A DNA stretch of 64,000 nucleotides from assembly GCA_031554215.1 (NCBI GenBank), contig JAVBKF010000119.1:32612-96611 (forward strand). Reading direction: 5' to 3'. Numbering within the stretch: the first letter of the stretch is position 1; the number at the start of each line of letters is the position of its first letter. A program made the position numbers and the translations under genes. The notes beneath the pieces were generated by a model. That model was not told the origin of the DNA, did not search any database, and saw nothing but the letters and a program-made list of their open reading frames with translations. The DNA comes from Bacillales bacterium. GTDB lineage: Bacteria > Bacillota > Bacilli > JARBTR01. Of the stretch, positions 5,400 to 24,360 are shown piece after piece.

Positions 5400-8300
5400 A
5401 TGACATATTTCATAGAAAATTTGCGTGAGGATGCCCGAAAGTTGGCTTTAACTCGAATTAGTGGCAAGAAAAAGTTGTCGGTCAGGTTATTTTTGACGGA
5501 TTTTAATCAAGATATGGCTAGTCTTCATCAGTTCGCTGACACGCTCCAAGAAAATCCAGCGAGCTGTGGGCAATTAGCGGAAAATTGGCTCCTAGATAAC
5601 GGTGAATTTATTGATGAACAAGCATTTGAAGTGTCGACAAATTTAAGCAATGCGCTACTGGATAGATTGCCTTGTTTAGATTCTGGTGCGCTCCGAATTC
5701 AATCAATTGTCAGTGGTTATTTGACGTGTGTTGATGGCGTGATTAGCGATGAATCATTGATTGCTTATATCAATGCATATCAAGAAATATCGGCACTCAC
5801 GATTGCGGAGATTAGAACGATTCCATTAGTTCTCCGAGCGGCATTAATCCACCGTTTTGCTGAAATGATGCAGGAACTAAGGGTTCGTAAAGAAATCTGT
5901 CATGATGTCGATCAATTTATGGCACAGCTTGATACTCAGGCGTTATCTTCAGCGGTGATTAACGAGGCACTTGATCGTGCTGGACAGAAAGTGCCATTAT
6001 CAGGAGCCTGGATTGTTCATTTGATTAGTCATTTGCGTGAATTTGCAGATGATAATGAGATGGTCAACGAATGGCTAAGTTGTCGTTTTGAAAATCAAGG
6101 TGACCTGAACAAAATTGTTTCTTATGAGCATGACCTGCAGTCGAGTTATCAAATGGTCGCAGGCAATTTAATCACCAGTCTGCGTAAAAATGAGCGCCGG
6201 GCTTGGGATGATATTTTTTCCAACATCAGTGTTATTGATCGGATTTTTCATGATGAGCCAACTAGTGTTTACCGTGAGATGGATCAAGAAAGTCGTAATC
6301 AATTATTAAATAAAGTGGAACTTCTTGGGCAGAAGCTGTATGTGCCCGAGCGGCTGATTGCGGAACGAGTCGTTCAGCTTGCAAGTGATGAAGTGACAAA
6401 TGAAAAGATGCGTAAGCGCATGCCGAGAAGCTATTCTCGCCAAACGTTCATTGCTTATTATCTTTGCGAAGATAAGGGCGTTAAAATACTTGCTCGGTCA
6501 CTAAAGAATTGTTGTAATCCGAAAGCACCAGCACCAAATCTCACACCAAAGTCGGAAAAGAACTATTTCATCTATCTAACTGGCTTCACGGTTGTATTCG
6601 CACTGATGTTTACGCTATGGCTTAGCTACGGTAAAACACATTTAATTGCCGAGTGGCTACTGATTATTTCAGCTGCCTGCTTCTTAGCAGGTGAATGGAT
6701 GGTGACTTGGTTACACACCTCTATTGAACTGACGGTAAAACCAGAACCGTTGTTACGCTATGATTTTGCAAATGGTATTCCTGACGATGCGAAGACCTTA
6801 GTGACGATTCCTGTCATTTGGTCTACGAATGAGGAAGTATCCGAGACTGCTGAGCGGTTGGAACTACATTATCTCAGTTGTCGTGATGACCATATTTATT
6901 TTGCGTTGTTAGGCGATTTTGTTGATTCAGATCAAGAAGGAATGACGGAGAAAGATCGCCATTTATACGCATTCGCGAAGGAGACAATTGCCCAGTTAAA
7001 CGCCAAATATCCGAAGGAGAACGGTCATTTTTTTCATCTCTTTCAACGGATGCGGTCTCACAATGAACGTGATGGTATTTTCATGGGCTGGGAGCGCAAG
7101 CGAGGTAAGTTGATCGAATTTGTTGAGATGATTCATGGTAAACAGGATACTCATTTTCAGCAAGGGGAACTTAGCTCAGCAAACGAGTTGCCAAGTTATT
7201 TACACGATATTCGCTACATCATTACGCTCGATGCCGATACGGAGCTACCGATGGGTAATGCGCATCGGATGATTGCGTCAATGCATCTCCCGTTTAATCG
7301 TCCGCGCTTAAATGCGAAATGTTCGAGGGTAATAGAAGGTTATGCGATGATGCAGCCACGCGTTGCTGTTAGTTTAGAATCTTCACGGCAGTCAAAGCTG
7401 ACATCATTTTGGACGGATGCTGGGCTAGATCCCTATGCATTTGCCGCGGCAGATCCCTATCAGGATGCAGTCGGTCATGGGATTTTTACCGGAAAGGGAA
7501 TTTTTGAAATAGAGACGTTTGGTTTGTTGCTTAGTAATCGGTTTCCAGATAATCAGATACTAAGCCATGATTTACTGGAAGGTTCATTCCTGCGAGCTGG
7601 ATTTCTTTCTGATATTGAATTAATTGATGCACATCCGAATAAATTTAGTGCTTATCAAAAGCGGATGCACCGGTGGGTCCGCGGTGATTGGCAACTGGTT
7701 AAATGGTTGTTTCCCACTGTGCGTAATCGTGCCAATCAGAAGGAGAAGACGGAGCTAGCCGCGATTAGTCGTTGGCAAATTATTGAGAATTTACGGCGAA
7801 GTTTATTGCCGATTGCTTATTATCTATTACTGGTGATTGCGATATTTGTTTTTTCAGGGATGACGGGTATTTGGCTGAGTTTGATCTTCTTGTCTATGTC
7901 CTTGCCAATCCTAAAACAAATTAGCAGTATGTTTGAAGGTGGGCGCATGAGCAAAGGATTCGTCAATACGGTTCTGCAAGTGCTGATTAATTTTTGGATA
8001 CTCCCATTTCAGGCAGCTGTCGTTGTCCATGCGGTCAGTGTCAGTCTCTACCGTCAGTTAATTAGCAAGAAGCATTTACTCGAATGGACTAGTTCTTCTC
8101 ATATTGAAAAAATGCAACATCGTTCAGACCAAAGGACTCTGGAGGGAATAACTGGTGGTTATACGCTCATCATTCTCTTTAGCGTCTTAACATTCATCTA
8201 CCAGCCATTCATTCCGTTCGTTTTCTGTTTAGCGTTATGCCTTTTTTGGGCACTTGCGCCCCTTGGTATGCGCTACCTAGATCGACCGACCCCGCAGGAA

Positions 8301-11300
8301 GAACTAACGATTGCAGATGAGGACCGTGCGATATTGCTGTCCCTTGCGGAGGATATTTGGCGTTTCTATGAAGAATTCGCTGATGAAGAAAATCATTGGT
8401 TGCCACCCGATAATGTTCAATTCGATCCAGATAAGGGTGCTGCTAACCGGACTTCACCTACGAATATTGGTTATCTGTTTACGGCAATTTTGGCTGCTGA
8501 ACAATTTGGCTTTATTTCGATAACCGATGTTGTACAAAAGATTGAACGTGTGCTACAAACGCTCAAACAGATGCAGAAATGGAATGGTCATTTGTTTAAC
8601 TGGTATGACACGATTTCACTTACACCGCTTGCCCCGAGATATGTATCGACAGTTGATTCAGGTAACTTTGTTGCTAGTCTGATGGCGACGAAACAAGGGC
8701 TAGATGTACTCAGAGAAACAAAGGCGGAAGAAGCAACTGCTGAACGCTTAGCGCTACTAAGCGAAGCGTTGGAACAACTCATTTCCGCTACTAATTTTCG
8801 GGCACTTTACAATGAAAAGGCTAAATTATTTGTGCTTGGCTACAATGATGTTGCCAGTAGACATGATGATATCCTATATGATTTATTGGCCTCAGAGGCA
8901 AGGCAAACGAGCTTTGTGGCCATTGCGCTTGGCCAGGTTCCCGTGAGTCACTGGATGGCACTGGGAAGGTCAACGAAGCGGCTCGGAAATCATATGGCAC
9001 TACTTTCTTGGTCTGGAACAATGTTTGAATATTTAATGCCATGGCAGTTATTGCGGACATTTGCTGGTACAGTTTGGGAAAGCACCTATAAAGGCATTGT
9101 TGGACAGCAGATTGATTATGCACATGCGCAAGGTGTTCCTTTTGGGATATCGGAATCTGGTTACTACGGATTCGATTTTCAAATGAACTATCAATATTAT
9201 GCATTTGGCGTCCCCGATACGGGTTTTAAACGTGGGCTTGGAGATGAGCTTGTGTTAGCGCCTTATGCGACCATTATGGCGTTACCTTTTGCTTTGGAAG
9301 CGGGTCTACGAGACCTCGGGCGCATGGCGAAACTCGGTGCAAGAGGCAAATATGGCTTCTTTGAAGCAATTGACTTCACAAAGAAGCGTATGCCAGAAGA
9401 TGAAGATTATATGATTGTTAAAAGCTGTATGGCACACCATCAAGGAATGAGTTTGTTAACCCTCGTTAATTTATTGCATCAAAATAAGATGGTAGAATTG
9501 TTCCATCGTGATATGCGGGTGCGTTCAGCGGAGTTGTTACTGAAAGAGCGTATACCAACAAAAGCATCGAAAATTCACGAGCATGTCAGCCATGAAGAGA
9601 AGAAACAGACCCAGAAGAAAGCACAGCACCATTATAAGCGCCGCTATGAGAGTGCTGAAATGCCAGTTGATGTGAATATCCATTCCAATGGACGACTAAC
9701 TTCCCTTGTGACGACACAAGGTGCCGGGTTCTTACAATTTGATGGCGTGGCTATCACCAGATGGCGTGAACAAAGTCCGCTAAGTTGGGGGAATTTCCTT
9801 TACATCCGTGATGTAGACAGTGGTGAAACTTGTTCACCAACATTTGAACCTTGCCAAAAACCGGCTCGGAAAATGAGTACACAATTTGCACTTGGGCATT
9901 CAAGCTTCTCACAAGAATCAGATAGTCTGCAAACAACGATGGAAATTTGTATTTCGCCAGAAGCTGATGTTGAATTTCGGAAATTTACGATCACGAATCT
10001 GCATCATGAAGAAAGGGCGCTCGAGCTGACAACTTTTGCAGAGCTTGCGTTAGCACCTATGCAGGCAGATGAAGCCCATCAAGCTTTTAGTAAGCTGTTT
10101 ATTGAGACGGATTATGATGTCGGTCACAATTGTTTACTTGCAAGAAAACGACCGCGGCACCAACAGGAAAACGGTCTTTGGGCGTATCATACGATGGCGC
10201 TCATCTCAAATGAACAGTCTGCTACAGAAGTAGAACGCAGGCAGATGGAACATGAAACGGATCGTCACTGGTTCATTGGTAGGGGGTATTCTGGGGGACA
10301 CCCGAGGGGACTCTTGGAGCCGTTAAAAGGAACGACAGGTGCTGTAGTTGATCCAGCGTTTATTATGCGGAAGTCTTTGAACCTGCGGCCAAATGAAACG
10401 GCGACACTGATCATTTTGACTGGAGCGACTGACAGCCGGGCGGCGGCGCTAGAAGCTGTCCAGAAATATACTGATGCCGATCAGGTAGAAGCGGCTTTCC
10501 GTTTGTCTTGGACACGAGGGCAAATTGAGCTCCGCCATTTCAGATTGACACAACAAGAGATTGCAACGTTCCAACAGCTTGTTGGGAAAGTATTGTTCAC
10601 GAATCACACTTCTGAAGAACGTAGGCAAGCAATTGTTGCCAATAAACTTGGTCAGAAAAGCCTTTGGTCCATTGGGATTTCGGGCGATAGGCCAATTGTA
10701 TTAATCCGGATTCCTGACACATCGTCACTAACACTAGTGAAGAAATTACTGACTTGTCACGAGTATTTGCGGAACATGGGTCTTCGTTACTCATTCGTAT
10801 TTTTAAACGAAACAGAAGAAGGTTATCAACAAGATGTGCAGAATATGCTCAATCGTTTAGTTGAAAAAGCGGTTGAAGGGGAACAAAGTGACGCAGGACG
10901 GATTCATGTTGTCACGGCAAAGTTGTTAGATCCTGCAGTTAAAACATTGCTAGTTGCAATGGCTAGGATTACCTTTGAAGCCAATGGTCCGAGTCTAAAG
11001 TCTCAGCTTCATATTGGCAGAAAAAACCCAAGCAAATACCGGATGAAAAGCTGCACGGCAAATGCCAGCGCTAGAAAAGAAGCTGTATTAGCTAATCAAA
11101 CAGAAGCTGGATTTGGAGTTCCTGATCCGAAAGCGAAACCAGGTGGCCGCGGTTATTATCATGAAGGCGTAGCAGTTTCAGAAGCGAAACCGTTCGCTAC
11201 GCAAACCAAAATCGCAGCAATGAGTGAAAGTCAAGATGAAGCAAGCGAAACTGTCCACAATGGTAAAGACGAGCTCCTATTTTACAATGGCTATGGTGGA

Positions 11301-13775
11301 TTTACGGCAGATGGAACAGCGTACAAAATGATCCTTTCAAAAGAGCGTCAATTGCCGTTACCATGGATTAATGTACTTGCTAATCCGTATTTTGGTACAA
11401 TCACTTCTGAAAAGGCAACTGGTTATACATGGTGGCGAAATAGCCGTGAGTGCAAACTAACGCCGTGGTCAAACGACCCAACCCTTGATACACCTGGGGA
11501 GCGCCTAGAACTCATTGACCATGCTAGTGGCCAGACTTGGCGAATCGGAGCAGGTGATGTAGCATGCCAAGTCACTTACGGTAGGGGTACATCGGTTTAT
11601 ACACAATCAAACCAGCAATTAAGCCAAGAAATGACTGTTTTTGTCCCAATAGATGATCCAATCAAAATCATTCGACTTCGGGTAAAAAATGATGCAGAAA
11701 CTGCACGTAAACTATCCGTTACGTATGCTGCTGATTGGGTGCTAGGTGTAAATCCGCCCGGCAATATGTCCTTTGTTGTCACAGACTGGGATGAAGCTAG
11801 TCAAACTGTGTTTGCTAAGAATCATTTCCAAGATCATTTCCGTTCTGCTACTGCATTTCTTAAAGTAGTCGATGATTCGGGGCAGGTCACAGAGGTAGGC
11901 GCATCATCTCTCAGTGATCAGGCTGAGAAAATGGGTTCATCGCTACCGGACTGTAACGATGCAGCTCAGCAAAACGCGAAGCAGGGGGACATAGCAATGC
12001 ATCGCGGTGCTGATTCAAGTGATGAGCAAGTGGCTGACGCACAGCCTACAGCAGCTGAGCAGATGGAACCACAAGGCAGTAACCGTGGTAGCAAAGTAGC
12101 AACGACATTTACACTTGATGCTGGCGGGCAAAAAGACATTTATATTCTACTTGGCTGTACCAATGCAAAACATGTTGCTAAAGAACTTGTGACAAAATAT
12201 ACGGACCCTAGCCGCTGTGAATCTGCTTTTGTAGCACTACAGGCATTTTGGGAAAAGCTACTTGGACAGATAACAGTGAAGACCCCGAGCAAAGAAATGA
12301 ATGTGATGCTCAATAATTGGCTCATGTATCAAACGCTTGGTTGCCGGATGTGGGCACGAACTGCTTTCTACCAGGCGGGTGGGGCTTATGGTTTCCGTGA
12401 TCAATTGCAAGATTCGCTTGCGCTCCTGCATGTTCGTCCAGATTTGACGCGTGCACAAATTATCCTTCATGCTTCGCATCAATATATTGAAGGGGATGTC
12501 CAGCATTGGTGGCATGAGGAGACTGCACACGGTATCCGGACGCGGTTTTCCGATGATTTACACTGGCTACCGTATGCGGTACTTCGCTACCTTGAACATA
12601 CGGGTGATAGGACGATCTTGGAGGAAACTGCACCGTATTTAGAGAGTGCACCCCTTGAACCAGACAACCATGAACGGTATGAACCGACTGTAGTTTCAGA
12701 AGAAGTAGGCACGATTTACGAGCACTGTGTTCGTGCGCTAGAACGCGGAATGACGATGGGTGAACATGGACTACCGCTTATGGGCATCGGTGACTGGAAT
12801 GATGGGATGAGCCGGATTGGTGCTGAGGGACGCGGCGAAAGTGTTTGGCTTGGTTGGTTCTACGGTAGCATTTTGCAGCAGTTTGCGAATGTGTGTGAGC
12901 ACCATGGTGATAAAGCCCGAGCCGAGCGGTACCGCTCCACTGTGAAAGAATTAGAAAACCACTTGAATATTCATGCTTGGGATGGTGCTTGGTTCAGACG
13001 TGCTTTCCATGATCAAGGGGTTTGGCTTGGTGCTGAGGATAATAGTGAGTGCCGAATTGATGCTATTGCCCAATCTTGGTCAGTGCTATCGGGACTCGGT
13101 GCAGAGAATAAAACGCGAAAGGCGATGGCTTCATTTGATCGTGAGCTCGTTGACAGACGGCTGGGGCTCGCGAAGATTCTTACACCAGGCTTTGACAAAA
13201 TGGACCCAAGTCCGGGCTATATTCAAGGATACCCACCAGGTATTCGTGAAAACGGTGGGCAGTACTCACACGGTGTCGTTTGGAGTATACTTGCTTGGAC
13301 AAAGCTAGGCGAAGGCGATAAAGCCTTTGAATTGTTCAATATGATGAATCCGATTAACCATGCGAAAACCAGTGAAGAAGTCCTGCAATACCGTGGTGAA
13401 CCTTATGTAATGGCAGCGGATGTTTACACTTCGCTACCACACGAAGGTCAATCGGGCTGGACTTGGTATACAGGCGCATCTGGATGGATGTATCAAGCGG
13501 GGATTGAAGGGATTCTAGGTCTTACGAGGCGCGCTGATAAACTGCATATAAAACCATGCATTCCAGCGAGCTGGCCAGAATATGAGATGACCTATCGTTT
13601 TGGTGAAAGCATTTACCATTTCACAGTGAAAAACAAATCAGGAACCGCAGGAGATGTGCAAAAGCTGGTAATTGATGGTGTCGATGCACAGGTTACAAAT
13701 GTGAATTCACCACTTGGTGTTGCACTTGAACTGAGTGACGATGGAGCGACACATGAGATTGAAGTGGAATTGTGA
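5400..13775 (+). CDS. cyclic beta-1,2-glucan synthase-like giant protein: N-terminal cytoplasmic domain, TM segments, GT84-like glycosyltransferase, TM segments, alpha/alpha-toroid domain, GH94 phosphorylase domain
   Basis: 2791-aa uninterrupted ORF. TM helices lie at about aa 384-450 and 790-950. The GT region carries ITLDADTELP (DxD) and QKRMHRW (Q..RW). A glucoamylase-like PTNIGYLF region is present. The C-terminal region matches the GH94 catalytic domain (NWLMYQTLGCRMWARTAFYQAGGAYGFRDQLQD...). This is the same domain order as Cgs/NdvB/ChvB. Confidence 0.75.
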   Translation: MTYFIENLREDARKLALTRISGKKKLSVRLFLTDFNQDMASLHQFADTLQENPASCGQLAENWLLDNGEFIDEQAFEVSTNLSNALLDRLPCLDSGALRIQSIVSGYLTCVDGVISDESLIAYINAYQEISALTIAEIRTIPLVLRAALIHRFAEMMQELRVRKEICHDVDQFMAQLDTQALSSAVINEALDRAGQKVPLSGAWIVHLISHLREFADDNEMVNEWLSCRFENQGDLNKIVSYEHDLQSSYQMVAGNLITSLRKNERRAWDDIFSNISVIDRIFHDEPTSVYREMDQESRNQLLNKVELLGQKLYVPERLIAERVVQLASDEVTNEKMRKRMPRSYSRQTFIAYYLCEDKGVKILARSLKNCCNPKAPAPNLTPKSEKNYFIYLTGFTVVFALMFTLWLSYGKTHLIAEWLLIISAACFLAGEWMVTWLHTSIELTVKPEPLLRYDFANGIPDDAKTLVTIPVIWSTNEEVSETAERLELHYLSCRDDHIYFALLGDFVDSDQEGMTEKDRHLYAFAKETIAQLNAKYPKENGHFFHLFQRMRSHNERDGIFMGWERKRGKLIEFVEMIHGKQDTHFQQGELSSANELPSYLHDIRYIITLDADTELPMGNAHRMIASMHLPFNRPRLNAKCSRVIEGYAMMQPRVAVSLESSRQSKLTSFWTDAGLDPYAFAAADPYQDAVGHGIFTGKGIFEIETFGLLLSNRFPDNQILSHDLLEGSFLRAGFLSDIELIDAHPNKFSAYQKRMHRWVRGDWQLVKWLFPTVRNRANQKEKTELAAISRWQIIENLRRSLLPIAYYLLLVIAIFVFSGMTGIWLSLIFLSMSLPILKQISSMFEGGRMSKGFVNTVLQVLINFWILPFQAAVVVHAVSVSLYRQLISKKHLLEWTSSSHIEKMQHRSDQRTLEGITGGYTLIILFSVLTFIYQPFIPFVFCLALCLFWALAPLGMRYLDRPTPQEELTIADEDRAILLSLAEDIWRFYEEFADEENHWLPPDNVQFDPDKGAANRTSPTNIGYLFTAILAAEQFGFISITDVVQKIERVLQTLKQMQKWNGHLFNWYDTISLTPLAPRYVSTVDSGNFVASLMATKQGLDVLRETKAEEATAERLALLSEALEQLISATNFRALYNEKAKLFVLGYNDVASRHDDILYDLLASEARQTSFVAIALGQVPVSHWMALGRSTKRLGNHMALLSWSGTMFEYLMPWQLLRTFAGTVWESTYKGIVGQQIDYAHAQGVPFGISESGYYGFDFQMNYQYYAFGVPDTGFKRGLGDELVLAPYATIMALPFALEAGLRDLGRMAKLGARGKYGFFEAIDFTKKRMPEDEDYMIVKSCMAHHQGMSLLTLVNLLHQNKMVELFHRDMRVRSAELLLKERIPTKASKIHEHVSHEEKKQTQKKAQHHYKRRYESAEMPVDVNIHSNGRLTSLVTTQGAGFLQFDGVAITRWREQSPLSWGNFLYIRDVDSGETCSPTFEPCQKPARKMSTQFALGHSSFSQESDSLQTTMEICISPEADVEFRKFTITNLHHEERALELTTFAELALAPMQADEAHQAFSKLFIETDYDVGHNCLLARKRPRHQQENGLWAYHTMALISNEQSATEVERRQMEHETDRHWFIGRGYSGGHPRGLLEPLKGTTGAVVDPAFIMRKSLNLRPNETATLIILTGATDSRAAALEAVQKYTDADQVEAAFRLSWTRGQIELRHFRLTQQEIATFQQLVGKVLFTNHTSEERRQAIVANKLGQKSLWSIGISGDRPIVLIRIPDTSSLTLVKKLLTCHEYLRNMGLRYSFVFLNETEEGYQQDVQNMLNRLVEKAVEGEQSDAGRIHVVTAKLLDPAVKTLLVAMARITFEANGPSLKSQLHIGRKNPSKYRMKSCTANASARKEAVLANQTEAGFGVPDPKAKPGGRGYYHEGVAVSEAKPFATQTKIAAMSESQDEASETVHNGKDELLFYNGYGGFTADGTAYKMILSKERQLPLPWINVLANPYFGTITSEKATGYTWWRNSRECKLTPWSNDPTLDTPGERLELIDHASGQTWRIGAGDVACQVTYGRGTSVYTQSNQQLSQEMTVFVPIDDPIKIIRLRVKNDAETARKLSVTYAADWVLGVNPPGNMSFVVTDWDEASQTVFAKNHFQDHFRSATAFLKVVDDSGQVTEVGASSLSDQAEKMGSSLPDCNDAAQQNAKQGDIAMHRGADSSDEQVADAQPTAAEQMEPQGSNRGSKVATTFTLDAGGQKDIYILLGCTNAKHVAKELVTKYTDPSRCESAFVALQAFWEKLLGQITVKTPSKEMNVMLNNWLMYQTLGCRMWARTAFYQAGGAYGFRDQLQDSLALLHVRPDLTRAQIILHASHQYIEGDVQHWWHEETAHGIRTRFSDDLHWLPYAVLRYLEHTGDRTILEETAPYLESAPLEPDNHERYEPTVVSEEVGTIYEHCVRALERGMTMGEHGLPLMGIGDWNDGMSRIGAEGRGESVWLGWFYGSILQQFANVCEHHGDKARAERYRSTVKELENHLNIHAWDGAWFRRAFHDQGVWLGAEDNSECRIDAIAQSWSVLSGLGAENKTRKAMASFDRELVDRRLGLAKILTPGFDKMDPSPGYIQGYPPGIRENGGQYSHGVVWSILAWTKLGEGDKAFELFNMMNPINHAKTSEEVLQYRGEPYVMAADVYTSLPHEGQSGWTWYTGASGWMYQAGIEGILGLTRRADKLHIKPCIPASWPEYEMTYRFGESIYHFTVKNKSGTAGDVQKLVIDGVDAQVTNVNSPLGVALELSDDGATHEIEVEL

Positions 13776-14524: not shown

Positions 14525-15700
14525 ATGAAGAAATTTTATATCTTATTAACTGTTGTAGCATTGGTGGGCAGTTTGCTAGCTGGCTGTGGATCAAATGGGT
14601 CTGGGGGTTCAGACTTAAAGGAAATTAAGATTGCGACACAGAGCCCGTTGTCAGGTGGTAGTGCAACACTCGGTGAGGCCATTAAACTCGGTGCAGAACT
14701 CAATTTATCAGAACAAAAAGCAGCATTCAAAGAGCTTGGTTACTCATTGAAACTTGTTCCTTACGATGATCAAGGAGATCCTAAAAAAGGTGTTTCCAAT
14801 GCACAAACACTCGGTGCTGATAAGTCAATTGTAGCCCTTGTTGGTCATCTTAATTCAGGTGTGGCAATTCCTTCATCGAAAGTGTATGAGCAATATGGAT
14901 TAGCAATGGTATCCCCTGCTAATACGGCAGTGGATGTAACAGAAAGAGGACTGAAAACAGTTAACCGTATCGTAGCACGCGACGATTTGCAAGGACCGGC
15001 TGGCGCGAAATATGCAATCAACGAACTAGGTGCTAAGAAGATTTTCATCATTCAAGATAAGACAGCTTATGGCTCGGGGCTTGCAGATGCATTCAAGGCT
15101 GCTGCAGAGAAAGCAGGTGCTGAAGTTGTTGGTTTTGAAGGGATTACTGTCGGGGAGAAAGATTTCAATGGTGTGCTAAACCTCGTGGCCAACCAGAAAC
15201 CGGATGCATTATTCTTTGCTGGTTTATATTCAGAAGGTGGACTCATTATTAAACAAGCACGTGAAAAAGGCATTGATATCCCAATTCTCGGTGCAGATGG
15301 GATGGATTCGTCAACGCTCGTTGAAATTGCAGGTGATGCTGTGAAAAATACATATATCACTTCTGTTGCAGGCGATGCAGCCGCATCCAAAAAAGGCACT
15401 GCGTTTGTTGAAAATTATAAGAAAAAATTTGGTAAAAACGTAGAATCATTCTCAGTGTATGGCTATGATTCGATGGGTGTTGTCTTAGATGGTCTTAAAA
15501 GAGCGATTAAAGCCAATGATGGAAAGTTACCAAAGAGAGATGTGATTGCAGCAGCTATCCGTGCAACCAAAGATTATCAGGGTGCATTAACGCAAGTTTC
15601 GTTTGATAGCAAAGGGGATAATGAAAACGCGAAGGTATTTATTTATAAATTTAGCGAAGCGAAATACCCAGCAGACATGGTGTCAGAAGTGACGAAGTAG
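14525..15700 (+). CDS. branched-chain amino acid ABC transporter substrate-binding lipoprotein (LivJ/LivK-like, Peripla_BP_6)
   Basis: Signal peptide with lipobox LLAGC. Type-I periplasmic binding fold similar to Leu/Ile/Val-binding proteins. GGGGGA RBS is present. Confidence 0.8.
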   Translation: MKKFYILLTVVALVGSLLAGCGSNGSGGSDLKEIKIATQSPLSGGSATLGEAIKLGAELNLSEQKAAFKELGYSLKLVPYDDQGDPKKGVSNAQTLGADKSIVALVGHLNSGVAIPSSKVYEQYGLAMVSPANTAVDVTERGLKTVNRIVARDDLQGPAGAKYAINELGAKKIFIIQDKTAYGSGLADAFKAAAEKAGAEVVGFEGITVGEKDFNGVLNLVANQKPDALFFAGLYSEGGLIIKQAREKGIDIPILGADGMDSSTLVEIAGDAVKNTYITSVAGDAAASKKGTAFVENYKKKFGKNVESFSVYGYDSMGVVLDGLKRAIKANDGKLPKRDVIAAAIRATKDYQGALTQVSFDSKGDNENAKVFIYKFSEAKYPADMVSEVTK

Positions 15701-15812: not shown

Positions 15813-16832
15813 TTAGCGCTTGCTGGTTATTTCAGCTGTGAAGTGATTTTCCCTCACAGTGCGTTTCGCTTTCACAAAACCCATGACAGTGTCGATAATT
15901 GCAATGATGAAAATAACCAAAATCGTGATGATCCGCGCTGATGCAAATCCGTCTTTCACAGACCTCAGTGAGATATCTAGTAAATCAGCTAAGTATTGCA
16001 TAAAATCCGCTTCAACCAACGATTGGTCTAGTAACATCATTGTCGCAAGGATGCAAAAGTAGAGATTCTGGATTGTGTTGACAATGGCGATTTGCTGGTT
16101 CCAAGTGCCCTTAATCAGTTTCATTATATTCATCGCTAAATAAAGTGCAATATATAGCATCATAAAGGGCAAATACTGATTGTAGCGGTCTGCATTGAAT
16201 AAGGCCGGGATTGGTTCAGCCGTTGTATAAAAAAACCTAAAATTGGGCGTGAAGAAGATCAAGAAAGAAAAAATAAGCGTAAAGACAATGCTGACAATCG
16301 GCTCATACTTTGGAATTTGTTGCTGTGGTATAGCTGGTAAAGTGCCTGGGTCCCAAGTGGTAGGAATCGCCTTGCCATGCTTCGCTTCGTAATAGACAAC
16401 TTTCTCAATAATGATAAAGACGACAGCAACGATAGCGGCACTGAGAAAACCTGATAAGACTGTTGTGCCATAAATGTCAAAGAAATGCCCGAAAACAAAA
16501 CTCAGTGTAGGTGTTGATTCAGCTGAAAGTGTGACAGCAATGATTTTTCCTACCGCAACGACGGACATCGTGATGATGACCACTAGCTTCACAGTTGCAA
16601 GGAAGCTATGATAATACGTTGGACCGATTAAATATTGATGATCACTATGGTAGGCTTTCGCAAGTTCTTCTGGTTTTCCGAGGCTAGTCAAGACTGCCTT
16701 AATAGCTGCTGTTGAGGCAGAGGGAGGCAACATATCCTCAATGTTTGCTCTTAATTCATTGGTCACCTCAATCCGTGATTTTTTTGGTAAGTGCTTAACG
16801 ACTGCATAGATGTAGCGTTCAACTAAATCCAT
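15813..16832 (-). CDS. PadR-associated polytopic membrane protein (N-terminal HAAS/DUF1700-like or permease-prefix-like helical domain plus about 6 TM)
   Basis: Starts 13 nt after the padR stop, with AGGAGGTG RBS. The N-terminus MDLVERYIYAVVKHLPKK..ELRANIEDML is typical of anti-sigma-like sensor domains found downstream of PadR regulators. Confidence 0.5.
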   Translation of the reverse strand: MDLVERYIYAVVKHLPKKSRIEVTNELRANIEDMLPPSASTAAIKAVLTSLGKPEELAKAYHSDHQYLIGPTYYHSFLATVKLVVIITMSVVAVGKIIAVTLSAESTPTLSFVFGHFFDIYGTTVLSGFLSAAIVAVVFIIIEKVVYYEAKHGKAIPTTWDPGTLPAIPQQQIPKYEPIVSIVFTLIFSFLIFFTPNFRFFYTTAEPIPALFNADRYNQYLPFMMLYIALYLAMNIMKLIKGTWNQQIAIVNTIQNLYFCILATMMLLDQSLVEADFMQYLADLLDISLRSVKDGFASARIITILVIFIIAIIDTVMGFVKAKRTVRENHFTAEITSKR

Positions 16833-16845
16833 TTCTGTACACCTC

Positions 16846-17178
16846 CTATATAAATTGCGCCATCTGATTCACGACGTTCTTCCATTCTAGCTTCAACTGA
16901 TGATAAATCCGTTTTCCCATCAAGCTCATTTGATAATATTTTCGTGGTCTTGTTTCGGTTGTGTCCCACTCACTAACGAGAAGTCCTTGCTTTTCAAGGC
17001 GCCGAAGCAATGGATAGAGTGTTCCAGCTTCGATACCTGCATGTTTTTCCTCAAGTAGTTGCAATAGGGAGTAGCCGTATTGTGGTGAAGTCAGTTGACT
17101 CAGTACAACTAAAGTGATTGTGCCGCGCTTCAGTTCAACGAGAATGGTCGCCAACAGCTCTTCCTCTTGTGCCATCAT
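16846..17178 (-). CDS. PadR-family transcriptional regulator
   Basis: Winged-HTH PadR signature ...YGYSLLQLLEE...GTLYPLLRRLEKQGLL...YY.... The start was chosen at the third ATG after the GGGGGGA RBS; the ORF track begins at a GTG at 17190. Confidence 0.8.
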   Translation of the reverse strand: MMAQEEELLATILVELKRGTITLVVLSQLTSPQYGYSLLQLLEEKHAGIEAGTLYPLLRRLEKQGLLVSEWDTTETRPRKYYQMSLMGKRIYHQLKLEWKNVVNQMAQFI

Positions 17179-17424
17179 CATTCCCCCCACTCAGTCTCAA
17201 TAAATTTGTTTCGACACCTCATACTATAGTGTATGTAATACAGTATGTCAAATAAGTAGTAGGAATTACTTGTGGCAAGTGGGTGAAAACGACAATGTAG
17301 TCGTCCTGTTAGGTTAGCGAGTCAATGACGAAGCTAAGTGATATGGGCAATAATACCTGAAGATAGGGTATTTTACCGTGCCATGTATGTAGTATAATCA
17401 TCTAAGGAAAGAAGGTGTACAGGT

Positions 17425-18327
17425 ATGGAAATGATACCTGCCAAACATATAGTGATAAAGACCAAGAGCCCAGCTGGATGGTTTGGTGTGAATGAGTCCA
17501 TGAATATTTATCGTGGGTGTTCGCATGGCTGTATTTACTGTGACAGTCGTAGTGACTGCTATCAAAATCCGAATTTCGATACAGTGAAGGTGAAGGAAGA
17601 TGCACTGCGGGTGATTCATGATGATTTACAGCGTAAAAAGGTGAAAGGGATTGTCGGAACGGGCGCGATGAGTGATCCTTATAATCCAGTTGAAAAGCAC
17701 CTACGGCTTACCCGGCAAGCACTGGAACTACTGAACAGGTTTCGGTTCGGCGTGGCGATTGATACGAAAAGCCCCCTTGTTACACGTGATGTCGATGTTC
17801 TGCGGGCGATCATGGCGCACTCACCAGTGATTGTTAAAATGACAGTGACAACTGCTGATGATGATTTATGCCGACAATTGGAACCGTATGTAGCAGCAAC
17901 TTCAGAGCGGTTTGCAGCACTGAAAACACTCTCTGATAGCGGGATTTTCTGTGGTGTGCTGATGATGCCGATTCTACCGTTTATCAATGATTCAGAAGAG
18001 AACATCGTAGGCATACTACAACAAGCAAAGGCCGCGGGTGCCAAGTTTGTGTACCCAGCAATGGGCATGACGCTCCGCTCTGGCAACAGAGAGTACTACT
18101 ATCAGAAGTTAGAGGAACGATTTCCTGGGCTCAAACAGCAATACATTCAGGTATATGGCAATAGATATAATTGTTCAAGCCTGCATGCAAAGAAGCTATG
18201 GTCTGTGTTCTTATCAACATGCAACGAGCTAGGTTTGCTCTATAACATGACTGATATCATTACAGCCTATCAAAGTGGATATCGAACGGAACAACTGAGC
18301 CTATTCGGTGATGAATTGGAATGGTAG
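17425..18327 (+). CDS. radical SAM protein of the SPL / COG1533 (DNA-photolyase-like, Rv2578c-type) family
   Basis: CxxxCxxC cluster motif YRGCSHGCIYC near the N-terminus, in the same context as COG1533 proteins. GAAGGTG RBS is present. Confidence 0.7.
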   Translation: MEMIPAKHIVIKTKSPAGWFGVNESMNIYRGCSHGCIYCDSRSDCYQNPNFDTVKVKEDALRVIHDDLQRKKVKGIVGTGAMSDPYNPVEKHLRLTRQALELLNRFRFGVAIDTKSPLVTRDVDVLRAIMAHSPVIVKMTVTTADDDLCRQLEPYVAATSERFAALKTLSDSGIFCGVLMMPILPFINDSEENIVGILQQAKAAGAKFVYPAMGMTLRSGNREYYYQKLEERFPGLKQQYIQVYGNRYNCSSLHAKKLWSVFLSTCNELGLLYNMTDIITAYQSGYRTEQLSLFGDELEW

Positions 18328-18377
18328 ACTTCCTGCAATTGGACCCGATAGCGATTATTTCATTTAAGGAGTAGCGT

Positions 18378-18689
18378 ATGAAGGATGTAGATAGAAAAGA
18401 ATTTTATCAAAAAGTATACCACTTAGTTGGGAAAGTACCAGCGGGATATGTCCTAACCTATGGGACGATTGCCTTCCTTTGCGAGAGACCACAAAATTCC
18501 CGTATGGTTGGAAAAGCAATGACAGTGGTACCGAATGATGTTCCAGCCCACCGTGTGGTGAATCATGCCGGGAGGACAGTACCTGGGTGGGATGAACAGC
18601 GGTTGCTGCTTGAAGATGAGGGTGTCACTTTTAAGGAAAATGGTCATGTCGATCTAAAGAAACATATTTGGAGGCAAGCCACAATATGA
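18378..18689 (+). CDS. alkyltransferase-like protein (ATL; MGMT DNA-binding fold without the acceptor cysteine)
   Basis: MGMT C-terminal-domain sequence with TYGTIA HTH. The active-site motif is PAHRVV instead of PCHRV (Ala replaces the alkyl-acceptor Cys, as in TTHA1564-type ATLs). The C-terminus resembles E. coli YbaZ. It lies 50 nt downstream of the radical SAM gene. Confidence 0.75.
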   Translation: MKDVDRKEFYQKVYHLVGKVPAGYVLTYGTIAFLCERPQNSRMVGKAMTVVPNDVPAHRVVNHAGRTVPGWDEQRLLLEDEGVTFKENGHVDLKKHIWRQATI

Positions 18690-18810
18690 TGTGGCGTTTT
18701 TATAGAGTGGGGGTCATTAAATGCTTTGACTTGCATGATTTTTTTCTGTATCATTAGCCATGTGTAGCACTGGTTTTGATTAAAAGTAAATTGATTGGAG
18801 GAATTATCCA

Positions 18811-19125
18811 ATGCCGAAAGAAGATTTTGAGCTTCAAGTGTTGACGTTACTAACAGAATTTAAAAAAGAATTAACAGGATTTAAAGAAGAACTAACAGGA
18901 ATAAAAAAAGATGTTGCTGAACTCACAGATAAAGTTTCCTTATTAATGATGAATGACGAGCGTCATCGGGAAGACCTTGATGAAATTAAGCTGAATTTGT
19001 ATAAAACGAAACATGAGCCAAATGAAATTTCTCAATTATTAAAAGTTCATGGCAATATACTCCAGCGCAATACCTACGATATTGAGGTACTTAAAACAAA
19101 AGAATCAGAAAAGATCCCAGTCTAA
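18811..19125 (+). CDS. hypothetical coiled-coil protein with internal tandem peptide repeat (ELTGFKE / ELTGIKK)
   Basis: 104 aa with TGGAGGAA RBS. No recognisable family. A 21-nt imperfect tandem DNA repeat lies at 18868-18909. Confidence 0.45.
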   Translation: MPKEDFELQVLTLLTEFKKELTGFKEELTGIKKDVAELTDKVSLLMMNDERHREDLDEIKLNLYKTKHEPNEISQLLKVHGNILQRNTYDIEVLKTKESEKIPV

Positions 19126-19584: not shown

Positions 19585-20337
19585 CTAGTCAAGCACCAAT
19601 CCAACAGGACAATGGTCACTGCCGTAAACCTCAGCATAAATACTAGCCTCAGAAATCTGCCCCTTCAAACGTTCGGAAATTACAAAGTAATCAATCCGCC
19701 AACCGACATTTCGCTCACGGACACCTGGCATGTAAGACCACCATGAATAACAGTCTTCCCGGTCAGGATAAAAACTACGGAAACTATCAACAAATCCGCT
19801 CGCCAGCAATTCAGTCATCTTCCCACGTTCTTCAGTTGTAAATCCAGCATTGCCGTGGTTTGATTTAAAGTTCTTAATATCCAGTTCCTGGTGTGCAACA
19901 TTGAGGTCTCCGCACAAAATAACAGGCTTCATTTGATCTAGTTCCAGCAAATATTGACGGAAATCATCTTCCCAAGTCATTCGGTAGGGAAGACGAGACA
20001 GATCACGTTTCACATTAGGTGTATAGCAATTGACAAGGAAGAAATCCTTATACTCAAGCGTAATCACGCGTCCCTCATGGTCATGTTCCTCAATCCCAAG
20101 TCCATAAGTCGCACTAATCGGTTCGGCCTTTGTAAAAATGGCAGTACCAGAATAACCTTTCTTATCAGCGCTATTCCAATATTCATGATAGCCAGCAAGA
20201 TCGATTTCTGCCTGCCCCTGCATCATCTTAATCTCTTGCAAACAAACGATATCAGCATCCATCGTTTGAAAGAAATCCATAAACCCTTTATTCAAACAAG
20301 CCCTGAGCCCGTTCACATTCCATGAAATTAATTTCAC
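19585..20337 (-). CDS. exoA: exodeoxyribonuclease III (Xth/ExoA family AP endonuclease)
   Basis: MKLISWNVNGLRA N-terminus. Conserved EEP-nuclease motifs (LQEIK, GDLNVAH, SDHCPV). Confidence 0.9.
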   Translation of the reverse strand: MKLISWNVNGLRACLNKGFMDFFQTMDADIVCLQEIKMMQGQAEIDLAGYHEYWNSADKKGYSGTAIFTKAEPISATYGLGIEEHDHEGRVITLEYKDFFLVNCYTPNVKRDLSRLPYRMTWEDDFRQYLLELDQMKPVILCGDLNVAHQELDIKNFKSNHGNAGFTTEERGKMTELLASGFVDSFRSFYPDREDCYSWWSYMPGVRERNVGWRIDYFVISERLKGQISEASIYAEVYGSDHCPVGLVLD

Positions 20338-20619: not shown

Positions 20620-21609
20620 ATGATGCTGGAAAATATCCTGAACACACTACCGCAAGTATTGCTGGATGGTATCACACTAGGTACTGTTTATGCTGTGATT
20701 GCGATTGGCTACACACTCGTCTATGGTATTTTAGAACTGATTAACTTTGCTCACGGTGAAATATTTATGACAGGTGCCTTCATTGGGACTGCTCTGCTAC
20801 TTGTCTTCACATCAATTAGTGGTATTGCCGCCATTCCAACAATACTGATACTGATTTTTGTCATTATCCTGACTGCATTCTGTACAGGCCTTCTTGGTGT
20901 TGGAATTGAACGTGTTGCATACCGCCCGCTCAGAAAATCACCAAAACTGATCAGCCTGATCACTGCAATTGGTATCTCTTTCTTACTACAAGATCTGATC
21001 CGTTTCATCACGGAGTATAAGAAAGGCAACTACATCTTGACCGGTCCAAACTTATTTAGTGGGCAAATTCCGATTTCATTCTCGAAAATCACTAGCGTTT
21101 TCAATGATGCAACGCTAAAAACATCATTCCTACTCGTCCTCGTTTTTGCTGTCATCATGATGATTGGACTTGACCTGTTTGTCAATAAAACAAGGTGGGG
21201 AATGGCAATGCGTGCAGTTGCACAGGACCGGGAAATGGCTTCGCTAATGTCGATTAATGTCAACAAAGTCATCTCATTAACATTTTTTATTGGCTCATCA
21301 CTTGGCGGGGCAACCGGTGTGCTTTTTGCAGTTCAATACGGGACAATTGACCCATATATTGGTTTTATCCTTGGCATGAAAGCCTTTACAGCAGCGGTGC
21401 TTGGGGGCATTGGGAATATCCGTGGCGCGATGCTTGGTGGATTGATTCTTGGTGTTGTTGAAATGTTTGTGGCGGCAAACTTATCCATTCTCACCGATAA
21501 TAATTTTGGTGCTGAGTATAAAGACGTATTTGCTTTTATTATCTTAATCCTAGTGCTCTTGTTTAAGCCTGAGGGAATCCTCGGCAAGGCACAACATGAG
21601 AAAGTGTAG
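20620..21609 (+). CDS. livH: branched-chain amino acid ABC transporter permease (LivH-like)
   Basis: Polytopic permease similar to LivH. First gene of a livHMGF-like operon. GGGGGGA RBS is present. Confidence 0.85.
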   Translation: MMLENILNTLPQVLLDGITLGTVYAVIAIGYTLVYGILELINFAHGEIFMTGAFIGTALLLVFTSISGIAAIPTILILIFVIILTAFCTGLLGVGIERVAYRPLRKSPKLISLITAIGISFLLQDLIRFITEYKKGNYILTGPNLFSGQIPISFSKITSVFNDATLKTSFLLVLVFAVIMMIGLDLFVNKTRWGMAMRAVAQDREMASLMSINVNKVISLTFFIGSSLGGATGVLFAVQYGTIDPYIGFILGMKAFTAAVLGGIGNIRGAMLGGLILGVVEMFVAANLSILTDNNFGAEYKDVFAFIILILVLLFKPEGILGKAQHEKV

Positions 21610-21618
21610 GTGGCCCGA

Positions 21619-22878
21619 ATGAAAAAGACAATCACCACACTACTGCAAGACCAAAAGAAACAAGTTTGGCTGACTGCTGCTTATATACTGCTGACTTTCC
21701 TTGGACTCGTCGTCGCGAGTACATCAGTCATCGCATTTCTGCTTTTTCTGATTTCACTACTATTTTTGCATTACCTAAAAATTGATGCTCGGCTCAAAAT
21801 TGCCGCTTTTCTGCTGATTCTGGTCGTTCTGTTACCGTTTGCTGCAAGTCGGGGTGATTCCTACGAATCCTTCATGGATGTTGCGACGATGGTCGGCATT
21901 TATATTTGTATGGGGCTTGGGCTTAATGTCGTCGTTGGTTTTGCTGGGCTTTTGGACCTCGGCTTTGTGGCATTCTTTGCAATTGGTGCTTATACATATG
22001 CGATTTTCACGACACCACAGGCTGCGAACTTTATTCATTTCATCGACTTTCCGCTCAGTGGCGCGATGTTCTGGCCATTTATCCTACTTGGTGGTCTAGT
22101 TGGCGCGCTAGCAGGTGTCCTGCTTGGAATTCCGGTATTGCGTGTTAAAGGGGACTATCTGGCTATCGTCACTTTGGGGTTTGGTGAAATTATCCGGATT
22201 GTCTTTAACAACCTCGATAAGCCGGTCAACATTACCAATGGCGCTATGGGGATTTCCTCAATCAGTTCTCCCGTGTTATTTGGGACCCATTTTGTATCGC
22301 CGAGCCAGTTTTACTACGTTGTCTTGGTGCTTATGTTACTGACTGTTTACGCTGTTCGCCAGTTAGAGTTTTCAAAAATTGGCCGTTCGTGGAAAGCGAT
22401 TCGTGACAACGAAATTGCTGCACAAGCCGTTGGCATCAACTTGCTCAGAACAAAGCTACTAGCTTTTGCAGTCGGTGCCTTTTTCTCGGGGATGATGGGC
22501 GTAGTCTTTGCTGCTAAGCAGGGATTTGTTGACCCGACAAGTTTCACCTTTAACGAATCGATTATGATTCTGGTAATTGTTGTACTTGGCGGGATGGGCA
22601 GCATTCCAGGCGTAATCTTTGGTGCAGCGATGATGACTATTTTGAATCTACAAGTGCTAACGGAGGTAACCAATTGGCTTGGAGATATTTCTAGCATGGC
22701 AAATTTTCAGATTCCGCAGGCACTGTCCCCTGATAAATTGCAGAAATTTATCTTTGGGCTTGCATTAATATTAATTGCACTCTTTAAACCAAAGGGACTG
22801 ATTCCTTCAAAGAACCGTTTGCATAAAAAACTACCAGAAACAAAAACGAGTAACCAAAAAGGAGGGCGGGCACTATGA
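21619..22878 (+). CDS. livM: branched-chain amino acid ABC transporter permease (LivM-like, with N-terminal extension)
   Basis: Start chosen at the ATG 5 nt after AGGTGG. The LivM-type permease domain is recognisable. The stop overlaps the livG start (ATGA). Confidence 0.85.
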   Translation: MKKTITTLLQDQKKQVWLTAAYILLTFLGLVVASTSVIAFLLFLISLLFLHYLKIDARLKIAAFLLILVVLLPFAASRGDSYESFMDVATMVGIYICMGLGLNVVVGFAGLLDLGFVAFFAIGAYTYAIFTTPQAANFIHFIDFPLSGAMFWPFILLGGLVGALAGVLLGIPVLRVKGDYLAIVTLGFGEIIRIVFNNLDKPVNITNGAMGISSISSPVLFGTHFVSPSQFYYVVLVLMLLTVYAVRQLEFSKIGRSWKAIRDNEIAAQAVGINLLRTKLLAFAVGAFFSGMMGVVFAAKQGFVDPTSFTFNESIMILVIVVLGGMGSIPGVIFGAAMMTILNLQVLTEVTNWLGDISSMANFQIPQALSPDKLQKFIFGLALILIALFKPKGLIPSKNRLHKKLPETKTSNQKGGRAL

Positions 22879-23651
22879 CACTCCTTGAAGTCAAAGCACT
22901 GACAAAGAAATTTGGCGGACTAACCGCAATTGATGCTGTATCACTCACAATCGAAGCTGGCAAAATTACAGCAGTCATCGGCCCTAATGGTGCAGGAAAA
23001 ACAACTTTCTTCAATATGATCACTGGACTTTACCAAGCAACATCGGGCACTATTTATCTTGACGGTGAGTTGCTTCATAAATGTAAGCCGGATCAACTAT
23101 CAAGGCGCGGTATTGCTAGGACGTTTCAGAATATTCGTTTGTTTTCTGAGCTAAGTGTACTCGATAACGTACTGACCGCCTTTCATACGCATCTGAAGGC
23201 CAATCTATTTTCGGTACTAGTGCAATTACCAAAGATGAGGAATGAAGAAAAGAACGCTATACTGGAAGCCTACCACTTGCTTGAATACGTAGGGCTAGGG
23301 GCATTTGCCAATGAAACAGCGATGAACCTCAGCTATGGTGCCAAACGAAAACTAGAGATTGCCCGGGCACTGGCAACAAAACCAACATTATTACTACTCG
23401 ATGAACCGGCAGCAGGGATGAATCCAAAAGAAACCACGCAACTCACAGGGTTAATCAAAAAAATTAGAGAAGATTTTGACCTATCCATTGTATTGATTGA
23501 GCACGATATGCGGCTTGTTATGGATATCTCAGAACAAATATATGTGCTTGATCATGGGGTGAAGATTGCCGAAGGAACCCCATTTGAAGTGAAGAATAAT
23601 CCCAAGGTAATTGAAGCCTATCTTGGTTCAGGTTCAGTGAAGGAGGAATGA
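22875..23651 (+). CDS. livG: branched-chain amino acid ABC transporter ATP-binding protein (LivG-like)
   Basis: Walker A GPNGAGKTT, signature LSYGAKRKLEIARAL, Walker B LLLDEPAAG. Confidence 0.9.
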   Translation: MTLLEVKALTKKFGGLTAIDAVSLTIEAGKITAVIGPNGAGKTTFFNMITGLYQATSGTIYLDGELLHKCKPDQLSRRGIARTFQNIRLFSELSVLDNVLTAFHTHLKANLFSVLVQLPKMRNEEKNAILEAYHLLEYVGLGAFANETAMNLSYGAKRKLEIARALATKPTLLLLDEPAAGMNPKETTQLTGLIKKIREDFDLSIVLIEHDMRLVMDISEQIYVLDHGVKIAEGTPFEVKNNPKVIEAYLGSGSVKEE

Positions 23652-23652
23652 C

Positions 23653-24360
23653 ATGCGTTTACTAAACGTTGCTAATATAGACGTATCTTACGGTGGAGTC
23701 AGTGCGATTCGTGGTACTTCATTTCACGTAGATCAGGGTGAGATTGTTAGTTTGATCGGCAGTAATGGGGCAGGGAAATCAACGATCCTCAAATCAATTA
23801 GTGGTCTTGTAACCCCTGATGCTGGGACAATTAGTCTTGAGGGAAAAGAAATCCAGACGGTTGCGCCACATGCTCGAACAACACTGGGCATTGCTCATGT
23901 ACCAGAAGGAAGAAGAATATTTCCAAAACTAACTGTCAAAGAAAACCTGCTGATGGGTGGCTTTACAATTCGTAGTAAAGAGCTCATGAATGAGCGGCTT
24001 GAAATGGTATACCAGTACTTCCCGAAGTTACAAACAAGGCTAGAACAAAAGGGAGGGACTATGAGTGGGGGCGAGCAGCAAATGCTTGCCATTGGCAGAG
24101 CCCTGATGATGAATCCAAAATTACTGATGCTCGATGAACCATCTATGGGTTTAGCACCAATCATTGTTGAACAGATTTTTCATATTATCAAACGGCTTAA
24201 CCATGAAGGAACAACGATCTTCCTTGTTGAGCAAAACGCTTACCAAGCACTGCAGATTGCTCATCGCGGTTATGTATTACAAAGCGGTGAATTGATCCTG
24301 TCTGGGACGGGAGCAGAATTATTGAAAAACGAACAAGTACGTGAGGCGTACCTAGCGTAA
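23653..24360 (+). CDS. livF: branched-chain amino acid ABC transporter ATP-binding protein (LivF-like)
   Basis: Walker A GSNGAGKST, signature MSGGEQQMLAIGRAL, Walker B LMLDEPSMG. Confidence 0.9.
   Translation: MRLLNVANIDVSYGGVSAIRGTSFHVDQGEIVSLIGSNGAGKSTILKSISGLVTPDAGTISLEGKEIQTVAPHARTTLGIAHVPEGRRIFPKLTVKENLLMGGFTIRSKELMNERLEMVYQYFPKLQTRLEQKGGTMSGGEQQMLAIGRALMMNPKLLMLDEPSMGLAPIIVEQIFHIIKRLNHEGTTIFLVEQNAYQALQIAHRGYVLQSGELILSGTGAELLKNEQVREAYLA

Follow-up and report, generated by a model that had tools for sequence, protein, structure and literature searches.

The window analysed here, a 64,000-nt stretch of DNA from a Bacillales bacterium, carries a radical SAM gene directly followed by a gene for an alkyltransferase-like (ATL) protein. 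Our preferred reading, which we hold to be probable though far from certain, is that the two genes, each distributed independently of the other, adjoin and are probably transcribed together within a single narrow Bacillales-like lineage, and that they do not constitute a conserved functional module. Since the pairing recurred in the nearest relative alone, we regard it as a local gene arrangement rather than as a conserved repair module; both genes add a member to families already known, and a 'module' is not established. Against our reading stands the consideration that two genes of the DNA-damage type are unlikely a priori to lie side by side by pure chance. Were the two genes truly a module, this would provide a function for part of the large orphan COG1533 superfamily, as well as a second downstream partner for ATLs besides nucleotide excision repair (NER). 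The clean negative result on conservation spares experimental effort on the radical SAM/ATL pair.

The locus and its counterpart in the nearest relative

The radical SAM gene (17425–18327, forward strand; 300 aa, ATG start) was identified from the list of open reading frames (ORFs) and by a match to Pfam PF04055, and the ATL gene (18378–18689, forward strand; 103 aa, MGMT fold) from the same list and by a match to PF01035. The intergenic spacer between them (18328–18377, forward strand) is 50 nt long. YRGCSHGCIYC occupies residues 29–39 of the radical SAM protein, with the cluster cysteines Cys32, Cys36 and Cys39, and VPAHRV occupies residues 55–60 of the ATL protein. The coordinates and motifs of the initial annotation, which had described the two ORFs on the same strand and 50 nt apart, were thereby reproduced. 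The Shine–Dalgarno (SD) sequence AAGGAG lies at 18366–18371, 6 nt 5′ of the ATL start codon, and a terminator scan found no terminator-like site in the 50-nt gap. A terminator-like hairpin with a T-run (GCCACAATATGATGTGGC then GTTTTTATAG) was detected by the terminator scan at 18678–18705 on the forward strand, where it overlaps the ATL stop codon, and is likely to mark the end of a bicistronic unit. Given the Pfam domains, the SD sequence in the gap and a terminator only after the ATL gene, we consider both genes to be real and, as far as such sequence signals can tell, probably to form one transcription unit in the source genome.

Upstream, a divergent intergenic region of 234 nt (17191–17424) separates the radical SAM gene from a PadR regulator gene (16846–17190, reverse strand), next to which lies the gene for a HAAS-domain membrane protein (15813–16832, reverse strand; both assigned by Pfam). 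The divergent orientation of PadR and its membrane partner relative to the radical SAM gene had been pointed out before, and their shared 234-nt upstream region was confirmed. A promoter scan and the sequence itself revealed a strong promoter-like site for PadR (TTGACA-17-TATAGT, 17251–17223, minus strand) and a TATAAT ahead of the radical SAM gene at 17393–17398. The inverted repeat CATACT-N16-AGTATG (17220–17247) overlaps the minus-strand promoter-like site of PadR and is a candidate PadR operator. No LexA (Cheo) box was found upstream of the radical SAM gene, where the best site had 3–4 mismatches. An Rfam scan of the whole window returned no match, indicating that the 234-nt leader is without a riboswitch, and neither the radical SAM protein nor the ATL matched the PADLOC defence models.

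The nearest relative (GCA_031554185.1, locus L001) encodes two focal proteins that are 77% and 74% identical to those of the window. Its gene order of HAAS, PadR, radical SAM and ATL was as in the window, and among the loci surveyed this was the only other place where a radical SAM gene adjoined an ATL gene. Here the gap between the two genes was 235 nt as compared with 50 nt in the window, a GH3 insertion separated PadR from the radical SAM gene, and both outer flanks differed from those of the window. Because the GH3 insertion breaks the link to the pair, PadR/HAAS is a self-contained dyad that is not tied to the radical SAM and ATL genes.

These observations bear on an alternative that we consider unlikely, namely that the two genes form a lineage-specific repair pair in which the ATL would flip an alkylated base and present it to an enzyme with the fold of spore photoproduct lyase (SPL) for radical reversal or processing, a route that would be independent of NER and useful in anaerobes. 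The common strand, the short gap with its SD sequence, the lack of a terminator between the genes and the terminator after the ATL gene all speak for such a pair, as does its retention in L001 even though both flanks have changed. The length of the gap, on the other hand, is not conserved, and the missing LexA box likewise counts against it.

Further genes surround the pair in the window. An exodeoxyribonuclease III gene (xth; 19585–20337, reverse strand; TIGR00633, 321.5 bits) lies in convergent orientation ∼0.9 kb downstream; it was rejected as a member of a repair island, as a tblastn search against the L001 locus detected no xth. The genes of a Liv-type ABC transporter are split, with the binding-protein gene (14525–15700) parted from livH/M/G/F (20620–24360) by a 4.9-kb block of HAAS, PadR, radical SAM, ATL, a 104-aa coiled-coil ORF and xth. 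No liv genes were seen near the L001 copy of the HAAS-PadR-radical SAM-ATL block. The 104-aa ORF (18811–19125) contains heptad-like repeats (EFKKELTGFKEELTGIKKD) and is preceded by a promoter-like site at 18726–18754; it matched no Pfam family, and what similarity it had to YabA and a PADLOC candidate model was weak and below threshold. Just upstream of the studied region, a single ORF of 2791 aa spans 5400–13775 on the plus strand.

Family assignment of the two proteins

Pfam assigned a sole domain to the ATL protein, PF01035 (DNA_binding_1, the MGMT C-terminal domain; 69.5 bits, residues 8–83 of 103), and detected no N-terminal Methyltransf_1N domain. Ala57 replaces the acceptor Cys of the PCHR motif, and Tyr28 and Arg42 are retained. 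We read the active-site columns in an alignment of the best 120 database homologues and found the lesion-binding Tyr28 and the Arg finger Arg42, which align with vpAtl and Atl1, to be invariant (120/120). The acceptor column held Ala or Ser in each of the 25 top-ranked homologues and Cys in most of the others, and in the two nearest relatives (L001, PAYRV; L002, FAYRV) the adjoining His was lost too. In the PDB, the best matches of the ATL profile were vpAtl (2KIF, 3.5e-20) and then Atl1 (3GVA, 9.3e-19), with full-length methyltransferases matching only at 1e-10 or weaker. ATLs are defined as proteins without the N-terminal domain and without an active-site Cys that keep the helix-turn-helix (HTH) with the Arg finger and the Tyr (PMC10779285), and on its sequence features the window protein fits this definition. 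The homologue columns, the invariant Tyr and Arg and the matches to vpAtl and Atl1 thus bore out the initial identification of the second gene as an ATL.

It is extremely improbable that the Ala at the Cys position reflects a sequencing error or the decaying pseudogene of an active methyltransferase. More distant single-domain relatives do carry PCHRV, which would favour such an origin, but the Ala or Ser of the 25 closest homologues, the additional loss of the His in L001 and L002, the invariant Tyr and Arg and the intact, full-length ORF all argue against it. A sequencing error at Ala57 was excluded by the homologue alignment: since all 25 closest homologues are without the Cys, its loss is a trait of the clade, and the concern that relatives of the ATL might retain it did not hold for the closest ones.

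ATLs hand lesions to NER (PMC10779285). By analogy with the family, we infer that the window ATL would most probably bind O6-alkylguanine and recruit UvrA/UvrC. It would scan DNA and flip O6-alkylguanine into its pocket via Tyr28 and Arg42, would be unable to take the alkyl group with Ala57 in place of the acceptor Cys, and would hand the lesion to UvrA/UvrC-dependent excision repair.

The radical SAM protein matched Pfam Radical_SAM (PF04055; 58.4 bits, residues 26–194), and its best NCBIfam matches were two COG1533 families, PA0069 (NF033668; 163.8 bits, 5.5e-48) and Rv2578c (NF038135; 150.8 bits, 4.4e-44), both below their cut-offs of 360 and 430, respectively. The SPL model TIGR04070 likewise stayed below its cut-off (20.9 bits versus 400), the Pfam SPL family PF20903 gave no match at E ≤ 0.01, and a sequence-based profile search of the PDB returned no relevant match, SPL included, even at E ≤ 10. 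With PA0069 and Rv2578c scores under half of each cut-off, the protein belongs to a separate subfamily. More than 7800 homologues were found at E ≤ 1e-10. Clostridia, Spirochaetes and gut or termite metagenomes account for most of these homologues, whose source labels included 'SPL family radical SAM protein' and 'DNA repair photolyase'. When an AF2 model (pLDDT 82, pTM 0.85) was searched with Foldseek, the top six PDB matches of this predicted structure were all SPL entries (4K9R/4FHC; TM 0.59–0.62, 12–13% identity), and other radical SAM enzymes reached TM values of 0.4–0.5. Judged by this model, the protein represents an orphan COG1533 subfamily with a predicted SPL-like fold and is not an SPL. 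Its earlier description as an SPL-like COG1533 radical SAM protein therefore holds for the superfamily, given the PA0069 and Rv2578c matches and SPL as the closest fold, but all three family cut-offs were missed.

Compared with SplB (4FHC), the window protein shares the radical SAM partial barrel and the N-terminal-side CxxxCxYC motif, with a fold alignment of ∼290 columns, and lacks the ∼80-aa N-terminal extension. In the SPL of G. thermodenitrificans, Tyr98 directly follows the third cluster Cys, and further SPL features are Cys140, which is the fourth catalytic Cys, and a β-hairpin near the C-terminus with Arg304 and Tyr305 (PMC3467042). Of the C-x-Y-C-Y motif of SplB, the first Tyr is kept in the window protein (Tyr38), whereas the position of Tyr98 is taken by Asp40 (C36-I-Y38-C39-D40), which is invariant in the alignment of its family. 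The family alignment contained three extra invariant cysteines (C45, C250 and C266), and DSSP analysis of the AF2 model made no C-terminal β-hairpin with Arg/Tyr evident.

The radical SAM protein would bind a [4Fe-4S] cluster via Cys32, Cys36 and Cys39 and generate a 5′-deoxyadenosyl radical. COG1533 genes have been reported to be LexA-regulated in several phyla (PMC8565304), and a LexA site has been described for Rv2578c (PMC3381160). With SPL as the closest fold and LexA control in other COG1533 subfamilies, a DNA lesion would be the leading guess for the substrate of the protein, whose family is without a conserved gene partner. Both the fold, to the extent that the predicted model is right, and the SOS regulation of COG1533 genes elsewhere would also suit a repair pair. 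Rather unlikely, in our view, is the alternative that the radical SAM protein has no DNA substrate and might instead act on RNA, a protein or a small molecule, and that its position beside the ATL is incidental. The failure to match SPL by sequence in the PDB, the invariant Asp40 at the SPL-specific Tyr position, a model without the C-terminal β-hairpin and the absence of DNA-repair neighbours from all 80 family loci surveyed (see below) are consistent with this alternative. It is opposed by SPL being clearly the best fold (TM ∼0.6 versus 0.4–0.5 for other radical SAM enzymes) and by the nearest named families, PA0069 and Rv2578c, belonging to COG1533 with its LexA-regulated members.

Gene neighbourhoods of the two families

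On the ATL side, one genome per species was scanned with the ATL alignment, yielding 555 confirmed relatives, of which the best 80 loci were surveyed (flanked by at least 1 kb upstream in 78 cases and downstream in 72). A gene of the radical SAM family was present near the ATL gene in only one of these loci (L050), 2.3 kb away and with unrelated genes between. This gene was absent from sibling loci and directly followed a TRAM/U5-methyltransferase gene, a position that would agree with a substrate other than DNA. The third-closest ATL (L002, a Bacillales MAG, 68% identity) had an ECF sigma factor upstream instead, and no radical SAM gene within the 2.2 kb available on that side. On the radical SAM side, we surveyed the best 80 metagenome loci (52–69% identity; downstream sequence of at least 400 nt in 69 and of at least 1 kb in 58). 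None had a match to the MGMT/ATL profile within 4 kb, even at E ≤ 1, and seeds of Ogt, AlkA-like and AlkD-like proteins also found nothing near the radical SAM gene (0/80). Both surveys are limited to the best 80 loci of each family, and within COG1533 they stay close to the window's own subfamily.

The contexts of ten other Cys-less ATLs were all unlike that of the window (e.g. L002, L003, L026, L040, L076, P0128, P0134, P0137 and P0138), and the neighbours included an Fe-S aldo-keto reductase (twice), asparaginyl-tRNA synthetase and an iron repressor with an M20 peptidase. Clustering of conserved neighbours turned up generic ABC ATPases and synteny confined to single taxa, but a universal partner for neither family, and in the library of literature that was searched, 'alkyltransferase-like' was nowhere paired with 'radical SAM'.

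A repair pair is thus disfavoured from both sides, with no MGMT-domain or other alkylation-repair gene near the radical SAM family, no radical SAM gene in 79 of the 80 ATL-family loci and none upstream of the third-closest ATL. The initial annotation had proposed a two-gene damage module and had named adjacency unique to the source genome as the observation that would speak against it. This is in substance what the surveys returned, with L001 as the only exception and the single further co-occurrence non-adjacent. What stands of that annotation is the identity of the two genes; the conserved functional repair pair is not supported.

The surveys also brought up other neighbours of MGMT/ATL relatives. 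Fusions of YjbR with a Cys-bearing MGMT domain, ∼330 aa long, were present in L045, L050, L058, L059, L061, L065, L067 and L077, and in five of these (L050, L058, L059, L061 and L067; Mogibacterium/Anaerovoracaceae) the fusion was directly preceded by a second one, which joins a 2-thiouracil desulfurase (DUF523) to an AlkD-like DNA_alkylation domain. L011 and L018, both from Desulfosporosinus, each have an AlkD-like gene adjoining the short MGMT gene. In three lineages, the gene for an aldo-keto reductase that bears a 4Fe-4S dicluster domain at its C-terminus abutted or overlapped an ATL or short MGMT gene (L162/L163, 3967–5336; L180/L181, 2964–4312; L048, 5890–7510); the ATL is Cys-less in L162/L163 and L180/L181, and the Cys is kept in L048. 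L180 has a UvrD helicase gene 1.2 kb downstream.

Comparison with ATLs and DUF1848 repair operons

Like E. coli YbaZ/eATL, vpAtl (2KIF) and S. pombe Atl1 (3GVA), the window ATL is a single MGMT C-terminal domain of ∼100 aa, with an HTH that bears the Arg finger, a lesion-binding Tyr and no acceptor Cys. It differs from these proteins in having Ala in place of the Cys where Trp is usual, in belonging to a clade that mixes Ala and Ser, and in that PCHRV is kept by a sister clade whose proteins are just as short. Short single-domain relatives of ∼100 aa were in fact mostly Cys-bearing (74 of 81 genome loci and 90 of 120 database matches). Such PCHRV proteins are spread over L004–L081 (e.g. L007, L011, L025, L074 and L080), are common in Bacteroides, Desulfosporosinus and Listeria, and, as single-domain MGMT proteins with a Cys, fit the usual AGT/ATL dichotomy poorly.

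A second point of comparison is DUF1848 (PF08902), an Fe-S family of ∼310 aa with a C-terminal CxxxCxYCY motif. This motif (YNTCSHGCLYCYA) is near-identical to the N-terminal YRGCSHGCIYCDS of the window radical SAM protein. DUF1848 genes were found in Ada-type clusters (with Ogt, AdaN Zn/AraC, HhH-GPD and AlkD-like genes) or right after ATL or short MGMT genes, in contexts spanning Spirochaetes, Firmicutes and Desulfovibrio (L172, 1943–4727; L178, 2441–5186; L179, 2255–3924; L182, 1803–4939; L170, 1927–3993). The gene orders included ATL-VapB-PIN-DUF1848, Ogt-AdaN-DUF1848-HhH-GPD, AdaN-DUF1848-Ogt-AlkD-like, HhH-GPD-DUF1848 with a 4-nt overlap, an HhH-GPD glycosylase gene two genes upstream and, on one IMG/VR contig, AdaN-HhH-Ogt-DUF1848. 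In two spirochaete loci, DUF1848 followed an ATL or short MGMT gene directly (L026, 5194–6481, 17-nt gap; L005, 5992–7262, 9-nt overlap). One locus of the repair-linked clade had none of these alkylation-repair neighbours. The link of DUF1848 to alkylation repair is real, and it is clade-specific, since 35 of 36 DUF1848 loci on IMG/VR contigs were without alkylation genes. Loci L183–L217 (IMG/VR, classed as viral) represent a separate DUF1848 clade (32–49% identity) without alkylation-repair neighbours. A search of the literature mentioning DUF1848 yielded nothing on its function.

Homology between DUF1848 and the window radical SAM family was considered and rejected, as hhalign aligned the Cys motif alone (26 columns). 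The HMM of the radical SAM family matched DUF1848 at E = 0.013, and an AF2 model of DUF1848 (pLDDT 85) had no SPL-like PDB match (TM at most 0.33). On these three counts, the DUF1848 evidence cannot be transferred to the window by homology. On a 4.9-kb metagenome contig (L153, 1975–3764), a DUF1848 gene lies directly upstream (∼40–50 nt) of a window-type radical SAM gene.

As an analogy, DUF1848 may modestly raise the prior for a functional radical SAM/ATL pair: with its genes repeatedly among those for Ogt, Ada, AlkA and AlkD, a radical-type enzyme beside an alkylguanine binder is not far-fetched. The Ada-type operons, the spirochaete genes directly after ATL or MGMT genes and the arrangement in L153 could all be cited in favour of a repair pair, although no homology of DUF1848 to the radical SAM family is demonstrable outside the Cys motif. 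Very unlikely, to our mind, is the most elaborate proposal, in which the ATL would have been recruited as the lesion-finding subunit of an SPL-fold radical SAM enzyme for the radical removal or rearrangement of alkyl or other base damage, a direct reversal independent of NER and of oxygen, with DUF1848 in Ada operons as a parallel invention. Our preferred reading remains that of two independently distributed genes, an ordinary ATL and an orphan radical SAM enzyme, which would act separately from each other.

Set against the window pair, the partners of DUF1848 are full-length Ogt, AdaN, AlkA-like and AlkD-like proteins, all of them absent from the surroundings of the radical SAM family, and DUF1848 itself is another family, with its Cys motif at the C-terminal end. 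What the Ada-type operons and the window pair have in common is a CxxxCxxC Fe-S protein that adjoins an O6-alkylguanine-binding protein, and of the two it is DUF1848 in its Ada-type operons, recurring in several phyla, that provides the better-supported and more promising lead for radical chemistry in alkylation repair.
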